Below are positions 8,025 to 56,658 of a DNA stretch of 64,000 nt, in pieces. Source of the DNA: a virus. The position numbers and the translations under genes are program-made. Positions within the stretch are counted from its first letter, which is position 1, and each line of letters opens with the position of its first letter. The stretch is taken from positions 64,001-128,000 of IMG/VR virus record IMGVR_UViG_3300013004_000026, one strand, 5' to 3'. Below the pieces are notes generated by a model that searched no databases, had not been told where the DNA came from, and saw nothing but the letters and a program-made list of their open reading frames with translations.

Positions 8025-8093
8025 TCTATGTTTCCTCTTGAAAGTTGAAATGACAAATTGTTGTCATGCAGCATTATATATGAATGACATACA

Positions 8094-9098
8094 CTAGGTC
8101 AATGTTTTAGTTACCAAATTGTTTTGGAAGATTTCCCATGCTCGTTCCCAACTCCAACGCCCACTGCCTTCCCAAACTTGTTTGCGATCTAGCATGAGTG
8201 CATCTTTTACAGCCTGTTTCAAATCATTGTTTAGACAACCGGTTATACCTTCGTCCACAACATCCTCTGGCCCTTGACAAGGATAGGCTGCTACAGGTGT
8301 GCCGCAGGCCATGGCCTCGATCATGACAATACCAAATGTTTCCCACTGGCTAGGAAACACAAACACTTCTGCATTGGCATAGTATCGAGCCAGGTCCACA
8401 CCAGTCTTGTAGCCAGTGAAATGCACATCTGGATATTGCTTCTTGTATGTTTCCAGCATAGGGCCATCGCCTACCATGACTTTCAAATAGCCTGGATAGT
8501 CCATTTCAAAAAATGCTTCAAGATTCTTTTCTTTGCTAACACGACTCACGCACAAGAGATAGCGACTCACAGTTTCCACACGATGCACAGGATGAAATAT
8601 CTCACGATCAACACCTCGAGTCCAAGACACAATCTCGCCGTCAAAACCATGATCTCGCAGTTCCTGCACCATTGTGTCTGTTGTGGTCAATACCTTGCCC
8701 GAGTGTTTGTGAAACCAACGCACTAGAGGCCAAGTAAGGGCCTCAGGGATACCAAATAGTTTTCTAAGTCCTTCTGGAAACTTAGTATGATAAGCAGTAT
8801 TGTAGCGATAACCGTGTTTGTCAAGATATTGTCTAACACGCAAACCCACAGGACCTTCGGTGGCGATATGGATATAATCCGGATTGATCTCCTCAAGTAT
8901 CTGGCCCACCTTCCTGGGAAAGGCAATCTTGACTTCGTTGTAGCCAGGGCAATCAACATAGCGGAACCGCCCGGGATCAAGATATACAACACGATAGTTG
9001 TCCCGAATCGCACACGCCTCAATATTTTTGTAGGTTGTAACCACACCATTGATCTGGTCCTGTAAATTGTCGGTTACTATGAGTATTGTCTTTTGCAT
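8094..9098 (-). CDS. GT4 glycosyltransferase, Agt-like glycolipid synthase
   Basis: ILIVTD..QINGVVTT, HIATEGPVG, YHTKFPE, SRVSKEKN, ETFGIVMIEAMACGTPV. Confidence 0.85.
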   Translation of the reverse strand: MQKTILIVTDNLQDQINGVVTTYKNIEACAIRDNYRVVYLDPGRFRYVDCPGYNEVKIAFPRKVGQILEEINPDYIHIATEGPVGLRVRQYLDKHGYRYNTAYHTKFPEGLRKLFGIPEALTWPLVRWFHKHSGKVLTTTDTMVQELRDHGFDGEIVSWTRGVDREIFHPVHRVETVSRYLLCVSRVSKEKNLEAFFEMDYPGYLKVMVGDGPMLETYKKQYPDVHFTGYKTGVDLARYYANAEVFVFPSQWETFGIVMIEAMACGTPVAAYPCQGPEDVVDEGITGCLNNDLKQAVKDALMLDRKQVWEGSGRWSWERAWEIFQNNLVTKTLT

Positions 9099-9253
9099 TC
9101 TGCCACTACCTTGAATGATTCAAATTTTAACCAATAGGTCAAACTGTTTCGAGCACGCTCGCATGCCTGTTGAGTTTCAAATTCAATTTGTACTCTGCCT
9201 GGGATGTCGTTTGGGTCTTTGCTGTGTATCGCTAGTATTATCAACAACCACAT
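9077..9253 (-). CDS. small hypothetical protein (MWLLIILAIHS...)
   Basis: C-terminal part of track ORF 9077..9310; GGAG SD; overlaps the 3' end of the phosphoesterase. Confidence 0.5.
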   Translation of the reverse strand: MWLLIILAIHSKDPNDIPGRVQIEFETQQACERARNSLTYWLKFESFKVVAECKRQYS

Positions 9254-10004
9254 TGTCGTTCTCCCGAGTCCATGTGACAATCTCCCAATTGCCATTGTGA
9301 TGCTCCACAAGAGCTGTCATTGATTCCACCCAGTCACCGTCGTTCATGTAAACAATTCCATCTATCTGTTTGATCTCAGCATGATGTATGTGTCCACAGA
9401 TCACACCATCAAAACCGCGCTTTTTGCAATAGGCAGCAAGATTGACCTCAAATTGAAAAATAAAGTCAACGGCTTTTTTTACGCGGTGCTTAAGAAAACC
9501 GCTAAGACTAAAATACCCATAACCAATTCTATGTAAGAACCAATTGAACTTATTATTAACTGATAAGATGAAATCATACGCTTTGTCTCCTAAAAATGAC
9601 AGCCAGGGTGCCAGCCTTGTGATACCATCAAACAAATCACCATGAACCACTAGATAGTGTTTGGTATCTGCTCCGATGTGTTCGCATTGATTGACCACTT
9701 CTACCATGCCAAAACCAATACCATAAGGTATGAGTGGTCTGAGAAATTCATCGTGATTGCCGGCCACATATACCACTCGCGTACCACGCTTGGCATGACC
9801 CAATATGCGGCGAATCACATTGGTATGACTCTGTTTCCACCGCCATTTGTTTTGTTGTATCTTCCAGGCGTCAATGATGTCGCCCACGAGATACAGTGTT
9901 TCACAGGTATTGTGTTTGAGAAAATTGTTTAGTGCCTCGGCCTTGCAGTCCTTGGTGCCAAGATGAACATCTGAAATAAAAATACTGCGATAGGTTTTCT
10001 GCAT
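9183..10004 (-). CDS. metallophosphoesterase, PlcP/LpxH-like (probable phospholipase C)
   Basis: SDVHLG, GDIID, GNHDE, HGDLFD, CGHIHH, NDGDWVES; next to the Agt-like GT4. Confidence 0.85.
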   Translation of the reverse strand: MQKTYRSIFISDVHLGTKDCKAEALNNFLKHNTCETLYLVGDIIDAWKIQQNKWRWKQSHTNVIRRILGHAKRGTRVVYVAGNHDEFLRPLIPYGIGFGMVEVVNQCEHIGADTKHYLVVHGDLFDGITRLAPWLSFLGDKAYDFILSVNNKFNWFLHRIGYGYFSLSGFLKHRVKKAVDFIFQFEVNLAAYCKKRGFDGVICGHIHHAEIKQIDGIVYMNDGDWVESMTALVEHHNGNWEIVTWTRENDNVVVDNTSDTQQRPKRHPRQSTN

Positions 10005-10032
10005 AGTTTTATTTTTATTTAACACTATGCAG

Positions 10033-10050
10033 ATTACAATTCTGTTACAA
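10033..10050 (-). promoter_or_regulatory. Pho-box-like direct repeat
   Basis: TTGTAAC-agaa-TTGTAAT with 11-bp period just upstream of the plcP-like gene. Confidence 0.5.
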
Positions 10051-10052
10051 AA

Positions 10053-10601
10053 TCAAAACTTAAAAGTCAGCCCTGACATGACACCATTGTAGCTCATGTT
10101 GCCTCTGGACTGCTCGTAGGCTACATTAAGATCTGTGGACTTGGTCAACGGCAACACATAACCCACTCGCCAGGTTCTGCTGAGATCTGTGTAGCCAGAC
10201 TCCACTGCGTCACGATAACGCCAGCCCAGTCTTGCTGTGCCTGGGCCTACACGTACACGCACCCCTGGCTCCACACTGTAGTAGTTGAATTGGTTGCCTG
10301 ACGCTGTTTTGCTGCCCAAGGCTGTGCGCAAATAAGGAACAAATGCTGGATCAATGGGTAATGCAAAAGTTGCCCCTGCTTCCAGCCGACTGATGGTGGC
10401 CTTGCTGGAATTGGCCACCAAGGTCTCTGCGTTGGCATCAATGGTTAAGTTTTGTACTCTGTGGCCAATGGTAAAAAGATAGCCATGCATGTTAGGTGCA
10501 CCGTTGACTCCTGTGGCAAATTCTGCGTTGGCACTGGCAAAAGTCTGTGCCTGACACACTGGTGCCAAGGCGGCTAGTAATACCAAAATGTATTTTTTCA
10601 T
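10053..10601 (-). CDS. small outer-membrane beta-barrel protein (paralog 2)
   Basis: Signal peptide; YSVEPG, WRYRDA, C-terminal LTFKF shared with 7467..8024. Confidence 0.85.
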   Translation of the reverse strand: MKKYILVLLAALAPVCQAQTFASANAEFATGVNGAPNMHGYLFTIGHRVQNLTIDANAETLVANSSKATISRLEAGATFALPIDPAFVPYLRTALGSKTASGNQFNYYSVEPGVRVRVGPGTARLGWRYRDAVESGYTDLSRTWRVGYVLPLTKSTDLNVAYEQSRGNMSYNGVMSGLTFKF

Positions 10602-10628: not shown

Positions 10629-10820
10629 CTACAACGACAATTCGTCTACTTCTTTACAGCAATGACAAAATCTCAAAAGAAAATCTGTCAGCATGTGATT
10701 TTCTGGAACCCAAAATCTCGTGCGGTTGAGATGTACTTCATAATTCAAACTGTTAGCACCTAACCAATCCAGCACTGCTCCAAAGTCTGTGTCGCGAGTG
10801 TACACACAGTATTGCTTCAT
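10629..10820 (-). CDS. hypothetical protein
   Basis: ORF track; ATGA overlap with upstream gene. Confidence 0.65.
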   Translation of the reverse strand: MKQYCVYTRDTDFGAVLDWLGANSLNYEVHLNRTRFWVPENHMLTDFLLRFCHCCKEVDELSL

Positions 10821-11461
10821 CGCTTGAGCAAGTCGTTGGTAAAGTCAAGTAACAGCTTGTGGTGCTCGCCATCGTGATACTGTGACCGCATCCAGCTGTG
10901 ATGTTGGTACCAGCTGTCCTCGCTTTCGGGGTGGCATCCAATCAACCCTATACGATTCTGATATATGGCCATGGCATCACCATTGGCATAGGTTGCCACG
11001 GTTTGAAATCTTCTACGGTCGCCTACCAGGGCACATCCGTCATAGAAAAACATCTTGGTAGGTTGACCTTGCCACTTAACAGGGCAGGCCTTGGTGTGTG
11101 GTCGGCGAGTGTCTGTGCGTGGCCGCTTGATATATTGCACAGCATCTACACCTTGCAATATGTTGAAGTAATCTTTGCCAGCCCAGTATGCGCCCATGCA
11201 GATACCCAAGTACCTGCCTCCATTGTCCACAAAACGGCGTATCCTACGACCATGAAATCTCAGTAGATGACGATAATCTTCGGCATCACCTATACCGCCT
11301 GGAAAAGCCACAATGTCCACATCGTCAAAGAAATTGCGTTCAATTTCGTGCTTGGTAAAAATTTTGAACCTGTAGTAATCGGCAAAGATGTTCAGCATGG
11401 AATTTCCGCACTGTACGGAAGCTCTAGGCTGATGTAGGAACAAGGCGATTGTGGGCTTCAT
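10817..11461 (-). CDS. BPL_N / class I glutamine-amidotransferase-like protein
   Basis: FPGG, GGRYLGICMGAY nucleophile elbow, CHPE. Confidence 0.8.
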   Translation of the reverse strand: MKPTIALFLHQPRASVQCGNSMLNIFADYYRFKIFTKHEIERNFFDDVDIVAFPGGIGDAEDYRHLLRFHGRRIRRFVDNGGRYLGICMGAYWAGKDYFNILQGVDAVQYIKRPRTDTRRPHTKACPVKWQGQPTKMFFYDGCALVGDRRRFQTVATYANGDAMAIYQNRIGLIGCHPESEDSWYQHHSWMRSQYHDGEHHKLLLDFTNDLLKR

Positions 11462-11469
11462 GCTGGTAT

Positions 11470-11718
11470 TTATAAAGCCGTGCGTTTCCTGGCCTTAACT
11501 ATCATTCCAACCCAGGTTCCGCAGAATGCGCCCACCAGTGCAGGAGCCAAAAGCCAGTGATTTGAAGTGTAATTGATCACAGCAACACTGGCACCAAAAT
11601 AACAGGCCACGCTCCAAACGCTGGCCATGAACACGCGATTGTCAGCCACACATCTTAGATAGTATGTGTAGACCAGGTCTAGCATGAACACAGCAAAAAA
11701 TGTAAAAATGTAATCCAC
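11470..11718 (-). CDS. small membrane protein
   Basis: Three hydrophobic segments, GAFCGTW. Confidence 0.65.
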   Translation of the reverse strand: MDYIFTFFAVFMLDLVYTYYLRCVADNRVFMASVWSVACYFGASVAVINYTSNHWLLAPALVGAFCGTWVGMIVKARKRTAL

Positions 11719-11734
11719 AGAAGTCTTAGAAAAG

Positions 11735-11754
11735 AATGGGGCCGAAGCCCCATT
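11735..11754 (-). terminator. terminator after tmRNA
   Basis: aatggggc-ttcg-gccccatt followed by a T-rich run on the minus strand. Confidence 0.8.
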
Positions 11755-11755
11755 G

Positions 11756-12170
11756 GTTGTTTGCTTAACAAGGTAAGTCCTACCCCGCTGGTTTCGCTGT
11801 TTAGGCGAAAGCTGCCTCAGTGCGAGCAGACTTGGAACCGCCGAAACGGAAACCTTTGCCTACTGTTACTTTAACACCAGATTGTGTATTTGCTTTTGCA
11901 TTTACTTTTTTGCGTCTTCGGCCGAGTTTCCCCAACCCTACGGTTTCTGCCTTACCGTGCTGTCCACTTATCTACTCTTTGCCCTGTCGAAACCAATGTC
12001 AGGCCCATCAAAAACACACTACTTGTCGCCTACTTGTTCCGCTTCGTCTAGAACTTATCGGACCCTTCGCTGACTGCCCTACAATAGGTGAGCAATGTGT
12101 TTATGGTGGACCTGGCGGGAGTCGAACCCGCGTCCAGAACACTTTTCCTTCTGCTTCATACAGCAATAAC
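11756..12170 (-). ncRNA. ssrA: circularly permuted (two-piece) tmRNA
   Basis: Acceptor piece with T-arm GGTTCGACTCC and CAGGTCCACCA (CCA end at 12104) comes first. Coding piece starts GGGCCTGACATTGGTTTCGAC at 12006. The 7-bp acceptor stem has G3.U70. Tag ORF at 11899-11801. Outer ends approximate. Confidence 0.92.
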
Positions 12171-12329
12171 TTAAATTCTAACTAACACCCACTTGGCTGT
12201 AAATGACTTACCTTCGGCCTTGTGTTTCGCAATCTTGCGGAACTCTTTTTTTTGAAGTTCTGCAATCTTTTTGGCATCGTGGTCGAAGCAAGCCTTGTAC
12301 AGTTCCATTACTAATTTGTTCTGTTTCAT
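12171..12329 (-). CDS. small basic protein (52 aa, MKQNKLVMELYKACFDHDAKK...), absent from track
   Basis: Hand translation; AAGGAGG SD; TAAATA late promoter upstream. Confidence 0.7.
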   Translation of the reverse strand: MKQNKLVMELYKACFDHDAKKIAELQKKEFRKIAKHKAEGKSFTAKWVLVRI

Positions 12330-34528: not shown

Positions 34529-35119
34529 TTAGCGGTTTTCTAGCACCCGATCTGCTAGTCCATATGCAACTGCTTCGGTTGCGTTCATGAAAAAATCTCG
34601 TTCCATGTCAGCAGCGATTTCGTCAAATGTGCGCTCTGCACTGTTGTGCTGTACATACACATCTGTTAGAGTATGCTTCATTTTGAGTATTTCTCTAACC
34701 TGAATTTCCATGTCTGTGGCTTGCCCGCCAGCACCGCCCGAAGGCTGATGAATCATGTGTCTTGCATGAGGAAGTATGAGTCGTTTGCCCGCGGCGCCTG
34801 CTTGTGCTAATAAACTACCCATAGAACAGGCCTGCCCCATCACAATAGTACTCACACTTGGTTTGATAAATTGCATGGTATCATAGATGGCCATACCTGC
34901 TGTGACCACACCACCTGGGCTATTGATATAGAACAAGATGTCTGTGTCTGGATCTTCGCTTTCAAGATACAGTAGCTGAGCCACAATCAAACTGGCACTG
35001 TGTTCATTTACATCAGTGTCCAACATCACAATACGATCTTTGAGCAAACGACTGTACAAATCATAACTGCGTTCGCCTGCTGAAGTGCGTTCAAGCACCA
35101 TGGGTACCAAATGTGGCAT
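34529..35119 (-). CDS. clpP: ATP-dependent Clp protease proteolytic subunit
   Basis: [25 protein letters not shown] (Ser), MIHQP (His), ERD (Asp). Confidence 0.97.
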
Positions 35120-54291: not shown

Positions 54292-54620
54292 TAGCCGTCT
54301 ACCTCAAGTTTGATTTGCAAGGGAAATCCGTTGTTTCTTGCCAGCAGTGTGGTTTCTATACCTTTTTGCTCGGCCAATTCAAAAGGATACACTGCTACAA
54401 CACCACTGCCTTCTTCATGGATTTGAACAGTTTTGGCTTCGGCAGCTTCGGGTCCGTATTTGAATATATTTTTCAAGCATTCAACAATAAATTCCATGGT
54501 AGTAATTTCATCATTGACAAAAATTACTTTGAATAGTTTTGGCTCTTGAACATTCAACTTTGGATCATGTTTCAAAGCATTTTCTTGTCTGGGCTTGATA
54601 GCAGTGTCGGTTGGCATCAT
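54291..54620 (-). CDS. clpS: N-degron adaptor ClpS
   Basis: FKVIFVNDEITTMEFIV, IHEEG, AEQK, FPL. Confidence 0.92.
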   Translation of the reverse strand: MMPTDTAIKPRQENALKHDPKLNVQEPKLFKVIFVNDEITTMEFIVECLKNIFKYGPEAAEAKTVQIHEEGSGVVAVYPFELAEQKGIETTLLARNNGFPLQIKLEVDG

Positions 54621-55467: not shown

Positions 55468-56658
55468 CTATTGAGCAACAGTATTAATTATCATCGATTC
55501 ATCAATGATTAAATCTTTAATGCCTTCTTTTTTCAGCTGAGTCATATTGAACAGCAAAGGCATCATGGTTGTTTCTAAAACAGCTTTGAGTCCTCGAGCA
55601 CCTATACCCATGGCATGAGCCTGTTGAGCAATAGCAAGTACTGCACTGTCATCAAACTGTAATTCAATTCCGTCTGTTTGAAAAAAGAACTGCATCTGTG
55701 CCAGTAGACTATTTTTTGGTTCTAATAACACTCGCATTAGATCTTCTAAATTCAAACTATGCAATGGTACCGTGACTGGAAACCTTCCAACAAATTCTGG
55801 AATCATGCCATAGCGCATGAAATCTTCAGCTGTGGCGCTGTCTGTGTGATTGGTTGTTTGCAAGTTAGTAAACCCAATGCTGCTGCCGCGTAATCGTTTG
55901 GCAATAATACCATCAAGCCCGTCAAAGGCTCCGCCGGCCACAAACAATATATTACTTGTATCAATTTCAACTGTTTCCAAAGCTGGATGCTTTTTATTTC
56001 CATTCATTGCAACACGACATTTTGTTCCTTCAACCATTTTAAGCAATGCCTGTTGTACACCTTCGCCCGACACATCTCTATGAAGACTAGCACTTTCACT
56101 CTTACGGCCAATTTTATCAATTTCATCAATAAACACAATGCCCTGCTCGCAGCGTTCTACATCATTGTCTGCTTCAGATAGCAAACGGCCAACCAAGGTT
56201 TCCACATCCTCGCCAACATAGCCGGCTTGTGTGAGGCTGGTAGCATCTGCAATTACAAATGGCACATTCAAATATCGTGCAATTGTTTTGGCCAACAGAG
56301 TTTTGCCAGACCCAGTAGGACCATAAAATAACAGGTTACTTTTTTCAATTTCAATTTTAGGTTTGAAAAACACTCGTTTGTAGTGATTGACCACAGTAAC
56401 GCACATGGCTATTTTGGCGGCGTCCTGCCCCACAATGTAGGTATCTAGAAATCGTTTGATTTTTACAGGATCAAGAGCTCGGCTGATTTTTTTATCAGAC
56501 TTGATATTTTCAATGCGTTCTTTGTCAAGAATGTTGGCACACAGTTCAATGCATTCATTGCAAATTGCAGCTTCATTGGCCACAATCAGTTTGTCAACTT
56601 CACTGCGAGCCTTGCCGCAAAAATCGCAGCTCATGTGCTGCACTTGATTTTCAGCCAT
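55468..56658 (-). CDS. clpX: ATP-dependent Clp protease ATP-binding subunit
   Basis: C4 zinc finger, GPTGSGKT, GYVGEDVE, IDEIDK, DVSGEGVQQ, IGF loop, GARGL. Confidence 0.97.
   Translation of the reverse strand: MAENQVQHMSCDFCGKARSEVDKLIVANEAAICNECIELCANILDKERIENIKSDKKISRALDPVKIKRFLDTYIVGQDAAKIAMCVTVVNHYKRVFFKPKIEIEKSNLLFYGPTGSGKTLLAKTIARYLNVPFVIADATSLTQAGYVGEDVETLVGRLLSEADNDVERCEQGIVFIDEIDKIGRKSESASLHRDVSGEGVQQALLKMVEGTKCRVAMNGNKKHPALETVEIDTSNILFVAGGAFDGLDGIIAKRLRGSSIGFTNLQTTNHTDSATAEDFMRYGMIPEFVGRFPVTVPLHSLNLEDLMRVLLEPKNSLLAQMQFFFQTDGIELQFDDSAVLAIAQQAHAMGIGARGLKAVLETTMMPLLFNMTQLKKEGIKDLIIDESMIINTVAQ

Follow-up and report, generated by a model that had tools for sequence, protein, structure and literature searches.

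An uncultured giant lake phage carries a genuine tmRNA gene (ssrA) in circularly permuted form, and we conclude that this gene is probably functional, betaproteobacterial in structural type and the source of a modular tag. This degree of confidence applies to the explanation as a whole, from a working gene, its processing and its charging to the modular tag, a Clp-read end and an add-on used for docking or spacing. The gene lies on the minus strand at approximately 11727-12168 of the window (the entire 64-kb stretch of phage DNA that was analysed), as located by ARAGORN and by the Rfam model for permuted tmRNAs (RF04321). Across the lineage to which the gene belongs, about half of the copies place a conserved module of 15-25 residues ahead of the usual short tag.

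Anatomy of the permuted gene and its genomic setting

The first-pass annotation of this DNA had read the locus as a circularly permuted, two-piece tmRNA borne by a phage, and had suggested ARAGORN and Infernal with permuted models as a check. ARAGORN and RF04321 both call a tmRNA, and ARAGORN returns exactly the 32-residue tag that had been noted. ARAGORN reports a single tRNA-like gene in the window, and likewise in the whole 168-kb record, at complement 11710-12196 and labelled "Permuted"; its 3' domain (gene positions 55-93) is followed by a spacer and then by the 5' domain (191-218), which is the permuted order. RF04321 (tmRNA_permuted) matches 12165-11871 over the full-length model (positions 1-213) with 98.6 bits, where the gathering score is 47 bits (E 6e-18 in a search of the 64-kb window), and with 99.3 bits when the sub-region is searched on its own.

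The acceptor piece comes first in transcription order (12104-12165, minus strand; its 5' end is approximate). According to ARAGORN and Rfam it comprises a 5' tail that forms helix 2 with the coding piece, a T-arm, the acceptor 3' strand CAGGUCC and an ACCA end. The T-arm reads GGGUUCGAcUCCC, and the 3' end of the piece reads ...CAGGUCCACCA, with A76 at 12104 and the encoded CCA at 12106-12104. Pairing of GGGCCUG (12006-12000) with CAGGUCC closes a 7-bp acceptor stem with G3.U70, so that a 7-bp stem, T-arm and encoded CCA are all evident from sequence reading and from the ARAGORN tRNA-domain calls.

Between the two pieces lies an intervening segment of 97 nt (12007-12103, minus strand), whose removal by tRNA-end processing is expected. 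It had been described as self-complementary. This holds for its ends, which form a stem of ~12 bp that prolongs the acceptor stem, and not for the segment as a whole, where the fold (MFE -24.4 kcal/mol) is only marginally better than those of shuffled sequences (z -1.76). Neither the length nor the sequence of the spacer is conserved, with lengths ranging from ~50 to ~260 nt among relatives (L066 and other loci). The spacer in the window contains no ATG.

The 5' part of the coding piece (11906-12006, minus strand) was delineated from Rfam alignments and folding, and includes GGGCCUG, the D-loop analogue UGGUUUCGAC, the return strands of helix 2 and a hairpin region at the position of pseudoknot 1. 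It leads into the resume context GUAAAU (11900-11905, minus strand), identified by sequence, Rfam and ARAGORN alike; most relatives in the lineage have GTAAAT or GTAAAC ahead of the tag. The resume codon GCA at 11899 follows directly and is aligned to the RF04321 resume codon at high posterior probability. From there the tag reading frame (11801-11899, minus strand) runs for 32 codons (11899-11804) to a TAA stop (11803-11801), as defined by ARAGORN, the alignment of its tag class and the in-frame constraint presented below. The end of the acceptor piece at 12104, the spacer at 12103-12007, the start of the coding piece at 12006, the tag at 11899-11801 and the G3.U70 pair had all been placed correctly in the first reading, as the raw sequence confirms.

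Downstream of the tag, folding and covariation identify two elements on the minus strand: a lineage-conserved hairpin of the GGGGUA...UACCUU type (11767-11789) and an intrinsic terminator (11727-11754) with an 8-bp stem and UUCG loop at 11754-11735 and a U-rich tail. Covariation across 28 relatives is strong for the terminator. In the post-tag hairpin, four of the six pairs have both sides changed in at least one sequence, most clearly a UA to CG exchange that is seen in 6 of 28 sequences. In relatives, the loop of this hairpin also changes together with a word of 5-6 nt that lies ~15 nt downstream (window 11759-11789; alignment columns 17-50), giving the combinations GTTAT/ATAAC, GCTAT/ATAGT, TGGTTA/TAACCA and TAGTTA/TAACTA, which points to a pseudoknot behind the tag in these phages. 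The window variant has GGACU in the loop and CAACC downstream, and the pseudoknot pairing is not evident. An Rfam search of the locus gave no riboswitch match, and a twister-P3 match inside the tag (18.8 bits, E 0.62) was treated as chance.

Upstream, a promoter-like site of the sigma-70 type (TTTACA, 17 nt, TAGAAT; 12175-12203, minus strand) agrees with the consensus at 10 of 12 positions. As judged from this consensus match alone, it would start transcription a few bases ahead of the acceptor piece. Two relatives, L083 and L066, have an ATAAATA word, like that of T4 late promoters, where the window phage has TTTACA/TAGAAT, so the time of expression may differ between relatives. The end of a 52-residue open reading frame (12171-12329, minus strand), which had no family match, extends over the promoter-like site and into the start of the acceptor piece. 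This frame is conserved with 63-85% identity in 11 related loci; at L037, if at no other, ~2 kb separate it from the tmRNA. On the other side of the gene, a 214-residue protein (10817-11461, minus strand) contains a BPL_N domain (biotin-protein-ligase N-terminal, glutamine-amidotransferase-like) and is found near the tmRNA in nine related loci at 55-64% identity.

The record as a whole spans 168,427 bases and is a fragment, ~47% complete by CheckV, of an uncultured T4-like jumbo phage that carries rIIA and other T4-type genes. No close cultured relative was found, its rIIA being less than 41% identical to that of any isolate, and no INPHARED isolate matches the tmRNA beyond the T-arm. ARAGORN finds no tRNA gene besides the tmRNA in this ~47% complete record. 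Among cultured Stenotrophomonas and Xanthomonas phage records, jumbo-type phages of Stenotrophomonas annotate a tmRNA whose T-arm region is ~80% identical to that of the window, and several of the records label this position tRNA-Leu or give it no annotation.

Tag lengths and add-on modules across a phage lineage

The window gene is one member of a large phage-borne lineage. An exact run of 32 nt from the T-arm to CCA (12135-12104) is identical in at least 119 IMG/VR contigs; ARAGORN called permuted tmRNAs on 103 loci among the matches listed, and further members were added by two more pattern scans. A flanking metallophosphoesterase is 77-84% identical in 16 loci, and such linkage of flanking genes indicates that the contigs belong to one clade of jumbo phages. 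Several of these contigs are 320-383 kb long and rated complete. A 26-nt acceptor end was found in only 21 cellular assemblies, all MAGs from assorted phyla; the tmRNAs that ARAGORN called in 12 of them are all one-piece with short tags. No cellular source of the permuted form was found among these 21 MAGs.

Tag lengths fall into two groups. The 94 distinct tag DNAs encode either 8-15 or 22-34 aa, and intermediate lengths do not occur. Short tags resemble ANDEQFALAA (ANDxxFALAA type). Long tags start with A-[KN]-A-[NDS]-T and continue with an add-on from one of three classes, which are FDFSAMSFTGN-like, TFEYF-like or basic and VKV...G[KR]GFRFG-like. They end either canonically or in a degenerate, Ala-rich sequence. 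Behind the add-on, 24 of the 46 distinct long tags have a complete canonical tag of the N[DE]xx[FY]xLAA type, which indicates that the add-on is placed between the resume codon and an ordinary degron. Within each class, tags differ in length by whole codons. The basic class, which includes the window tag, comprises ~30 contigs, and in much of it, the window copy included, the AND element is gone and the Ala-rich end alone is left. One branch of this class (L172, L174 and L176) ends in ATFA, and others end in VAA, LAA, LLAA or VLA.

In a phosphoesterase tree, short-tag and long-tag phages are intermixed, most branches being weakly supported. The pairing of L109, which has a short tag, with L083, of the basic class, is supported at 93/88. 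A search for a gene that travels only with long tags was negative, as the genes flanking the locus recur beside tmRNAs of all tag classes.

Translation of the long frames was assessed by Nei-Gojobori pN/pS, calculated for the tag frame and, as a control, for each of the two shifted frames. Ratios were 0.33 in the tag frame against 1.93 and 1.29 in the shifted frames for the FTGN class, 0.51 against 1.07 and 1.35 for the TFEYF class, and 0.33 against 1.41 and 1.09 for the 10-residue short tags. The signal is weakest of the four in the basic class, where a 21-column core gave 0.59 in the tag frame and 1.37 and 0.74 in the shifted ones. In codon alignments, changes occur at wobble positions and residues are kept. 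Constraint in the tag frame, and not in the shifted frames, argues that the long frames are translated. For the window gene this holds for the class rather than for the individual copy, since its tag DNA is only ~55-58% identical to that of its nearest relatives.

Two other accounts of the long frame were rejected. The first-pass annotation had set its long frame against the use of a different, short resume frame; both shifted frames stop after 8-10 codons and are without constraint, and the constraint is found in the long frame, at the level of the class and with the weakest signal of the four. An RNA structural insertion is likewise not favored, as the tag stretch folds no better than shuffled sequences (z -0.77) and its variation is biased toward wobble positions.

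The window tag itself had been singled out as exceptionally long, basic and ending in AAFA, and this description stands. Its 32 residues consist of an AKANT start, a basic VKV...GFRFG module and a linker rich in Ser, Lys and Arg before the AAFA end. With six K/R and one E, its net charge of +5 places it among the most basic of 78 distinct lineage tags, which range from -5 to +6. Among the same 78 tags, one ends in AFA and two in TFA (3 of 78 for xFA), and 63 end in LAA, MAA, VAA or IAA. AAFA is a rare variant, yet it conforms to the usual small-hydrophobic type with a final Ala. Unlike many long tags, this one has lost the internal AND-type element. AlphaFold2 gave neither a confident fold nor secondary structure for the tag (pLDDT 61); a beta-hairpin could be suggested by the alternating residues V-K-V-T-V / F-R-F on either side of a G-K-G turn, judging from the residue pattern alone.

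Proposed fate of the tagged proteins

We infer how the RNA is processed and charged, that tagged proteins are degraded, and what the add-on does, as follows. One precursor would be transcribed from the gene's own promoter, and the tRNA-end processing enzymes of the host would remove the 97-nt spacer, leaving an acceptor piece and a coding piece joined by pairing in the acceptor stem and helix 2. The tmRNA would be charged through G3.U70 by host AlaRS, and host SmpB and EF-Tu would bring it to ribosomes that stall on broken mRNAs in the infected cell. Translation would then resume at GCA 11899, adding Ala and the 32-residue tag. The short, Ala-rich, hydrophobic end would serve as a degron for Clp-type proteases, either host ClpXP or ClpAP or the phage ClpP with its ClpA-like protein or ClpX. 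The add-on is most likely an extra docking or spacing element for recognition rather than a replacement of the C-terminal degron. Against the degron reading, AAFA differs from LAA, the end that ClpX reads best, and the AFA end of the window tag departs from the canonical ClpX-read degron, which is a C-terminal LAA or xAA with a free carboxylate.

SmpB was found neither in the 168-kb record nor in 19 related large records, of which seven are at least 90% complete, and would thus need to be supplied by the host; the absence of smpB from the window had been noted at first reading and extends to all of these records. In contrast to SmpB, a full set of Clp components is encoded by the phage. Its ClpX (396 aa; 55468-56658, minus strand) matches NF003745 with 505 bits (cut-off 359), its ClpP (196 aa; 34529-35119, minus strand) matches NF001368 with 296 bits (cut-off 249), and a ClpS-like adaptor (54312-54548, minus strand) matches PF02617 with 82 bits (E 3e-24). 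The ClpA-like protein, of 769 residues, is encoded at 8091-10400 of the 168-kb record, outside the window. The ClpX aligns with solved ClpX structures over its whole length and keeps the zinc-finger cysteines, GYVG, the pore-2 Arg and an RKH-type loop that reads KKH. With GYVG, pore-2 and RKH loops all present, it is a possible reader of the tag, as a candidate only.

Among related phages, ClpP is found in all seven of the near-complete relatives within the first set of 19, and a ClpA-like protein of ~760-785 aa is present in most relatives. True ClpX is sporadic, occurring in 5 of 29 related large records, all of them with short tags. When only genomes that are at least 90% complete are considered, ClpX is present in none of five with long tags and in three of four with short tags. 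The ClpX-free long-tag genomes include L173 (329 kb, with terminal repeats) and L066 (97% complete), both of which have tags of the basic class; among the long-tag members, only the window phage was seen to have ClpX. A positive association between long tags and phage ClpX was therefore rejected across the 29 records, the trend being opposite; as the genomes are few and several are near-duplicates, these counts were put to no further use.

These results bear on the proposal, made in the first-pass annotation, that the tag is a private degron, perhaps matched to a ClpXP encoded by the phage itself. On this reading, rescued products would be routed to the phage protease and not to those of the host. 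The enzyme was correctly anticipated, since the phage does encode ClpX and ClpP, together with ClpS, and the AFA end of the tag is unusual. However, the tag is not private to this phage, with ~30 contigs having tags of the same class, and two of the five near-complete long-tag relatives that lack ClpX belong to that class. Retuned pore loops were also rejected, as those of the window ClpX are ordinary (standard GYVG and pore-2 Arg) and its KKH loop is common to the ClpX of two short-tag relatives. There is thus no sign that a long or AFA-ending tag is matched to the phage ClpX. The genomes compared are few and non-independent, so they argue against a general ClpX rule and not against a pairing specific to the window phage; such a pairing is possible but unsupported, and overall we consider a private degron distinctly unlikely. 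Delivery to the host Lon protease, as in Mollicutes, would be another route by which a long AAFA tag could lead to degradation. By analogy, the tag of Mesoplasma florum is longer than that of E. coli, ends in NYAFA and is recognised by Lon (PMC9382460), and the window tag is likewise long and ends in AFA. The likeness amounts to three residues, Lon was not found in the phage record, and endings in VAA, LAA, LLAA or VLA predominate within the tag class, which together make a Lon-type degron very unlikely.

The add-on might instead confer a non-degradative or additional function, as a docking handle for a ClpA-like unfoldase, an adaptor or nucleic acid, or as a shield from host SspB/ClpX, with the swapping of classes reflecting conflict with the host. 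Such a role would fit the occurrence of three unrelated classes, and of short tags, intermixed among phages whose phosphoesterases are 77-84% identical, and the conservation of the modules at the peptide level; the span of tag charges from -5 to +6 further indicates that the modules are not mere spacers of one composition. We nevertheless regard it as doubtful, given that no gene was found to travel only with long tags, that degradation fits the half of the long tags in which a full canonical degron is retained, that AlphaFold2 gave no support for a folded module (pLDDT 61), and that support values in the tree are weak. Finally, the RNA could act mainly as a decoy that titrates host SmpB or competes with host tmRNA, leaving the tag frame irrelevant. 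A tmRNA fragment of mycobacteriophage DS6A that consists of the tRNA-like domain only is known, and a similar molecule inhibits tmRNA (PMC4131195); the lack of a phage SmpB in the record and 19 relatives would also be compatible with a decoy. More than 100 contigs retain the full coding piece with its resume context, an open frame and a stop codon, and selection in that frame is purifying; we find a decoy role hardly credible.

Degradation through a Clp-read, Ala-rich end, with the add-on as an extra docking or spacing element, remains our preferred reading. Beyond it, we offer only tentatively, and as an improbable extension, that the tag of this lineage is a swappable two-part signal, in which at least three unrelated modules of 15-25 residues, conserved as peptides and exchanged or lost among close phages, serve as phage-specific handles and, by way of a phage adaptor or unfoldase or by host evasion, determine what becomes of rescued proteins.

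Comparison with known tmRNA systems

tmRNA tags are normally treated as short degrons of ~10 residues. Here, a purely phage-borne lineage splits into short canonical tags and tags that are two to three times longer, with the extra part conserved as a peptide. The window gene alone is a modest finding, being one further lineage member. If the add-ons change which protease or adaptor sees the rescued proteins, these phages would reprogram the output of host ribosome rescue, and if the two-part swappable signal is true, phage and host would be in conflict over tmRNA tags, which would then be no fixed degradation signal. New orthogonal degrons could also be drawn from the modules, as happened with the Mesoplasma tag.

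Phage tmRNAs have long been known (PMC4131195), and huge phages carry them (PMC7162821). In a tmRNA database of 97,179 sequences, 79 are from phages and the commonest tag length is 10 aa (PMC11915505). Two-piece tmRNAs in phages are likewise already published: 53 were reported in phage genomes, 50 of these aquatic, and their proposed role is ribosome rescue and recycling of the tagged proteins (PMC9004378). We found no mention of long modular tags in that report, and no description of modular long tags in phage tmRNAs was found in PMC9004378, PMC4131195, PMC7162821, PMC11915505, PMC9382460 or their supplements. The present analysis contributes the two length groups, the architecture of an add-on plus degron in three classes, the test of the reading frames and the negative result for ClpX.

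The closest phage counterparts are those of the Methylophilales phage Melnitz and pelagimyophages (PMC9004378), in which, as in the window phage, a permuted ssrA with its own promoter is carried by a T4-related aquatic phage with no phage SmpB reported. The two genes differ in that Melnitz has the alphaproteobacterial type and a glutamine riboswitch (PMC9004378), whereas the window gene is best matched by the betaproteobacterial model and gave no riboswitch match. The ssrA tag of Mesoplasma florum (PMC9382460) resembles the window tag in being unusually long and in ending xAFA. In contrast to the window gene, it is encoded by a one-piece tmRNA in a cellular lineage without active ClpXP, and the window tag shares its last three residues alone.

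Among the older Rfam subtypes, beta_tmRNA (RF01850) gave the best score, 62.9 bits, which is below its gathering score of 84 and leaves the window gene outside that family. The order of parts, the UAAAUGC resume context, the layout of helix 2 and the terminal hairpin are shared with this betaproteobacterial two-piece tmRNA, which was reportedly described by Sharkady and Williams in 2004 (PMC516066, as cited in PMC9004378). The long tag, by comparison, cannot be placed by the RF01850 model, and it is the short-tag relatives that carry ANDEQFALAA-type tags. For the logic of the add-on, the nearest parallel is the E. coli ssrA tag, which is said to be bipartite, with SspB binding its N-terminal part and ClpX its C-terminal LAA (work attributed to Flynn et al. 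2001 and Levchenko et al. 2000). As in the arrangement proposed here, an upstream element is separate from the C-terminal degron. The lineage described here departs from the E. coli system in that no SspB was found in the phage record and in that the add-on, at 15-25 residues rather than 7, comes in unrelated classes.
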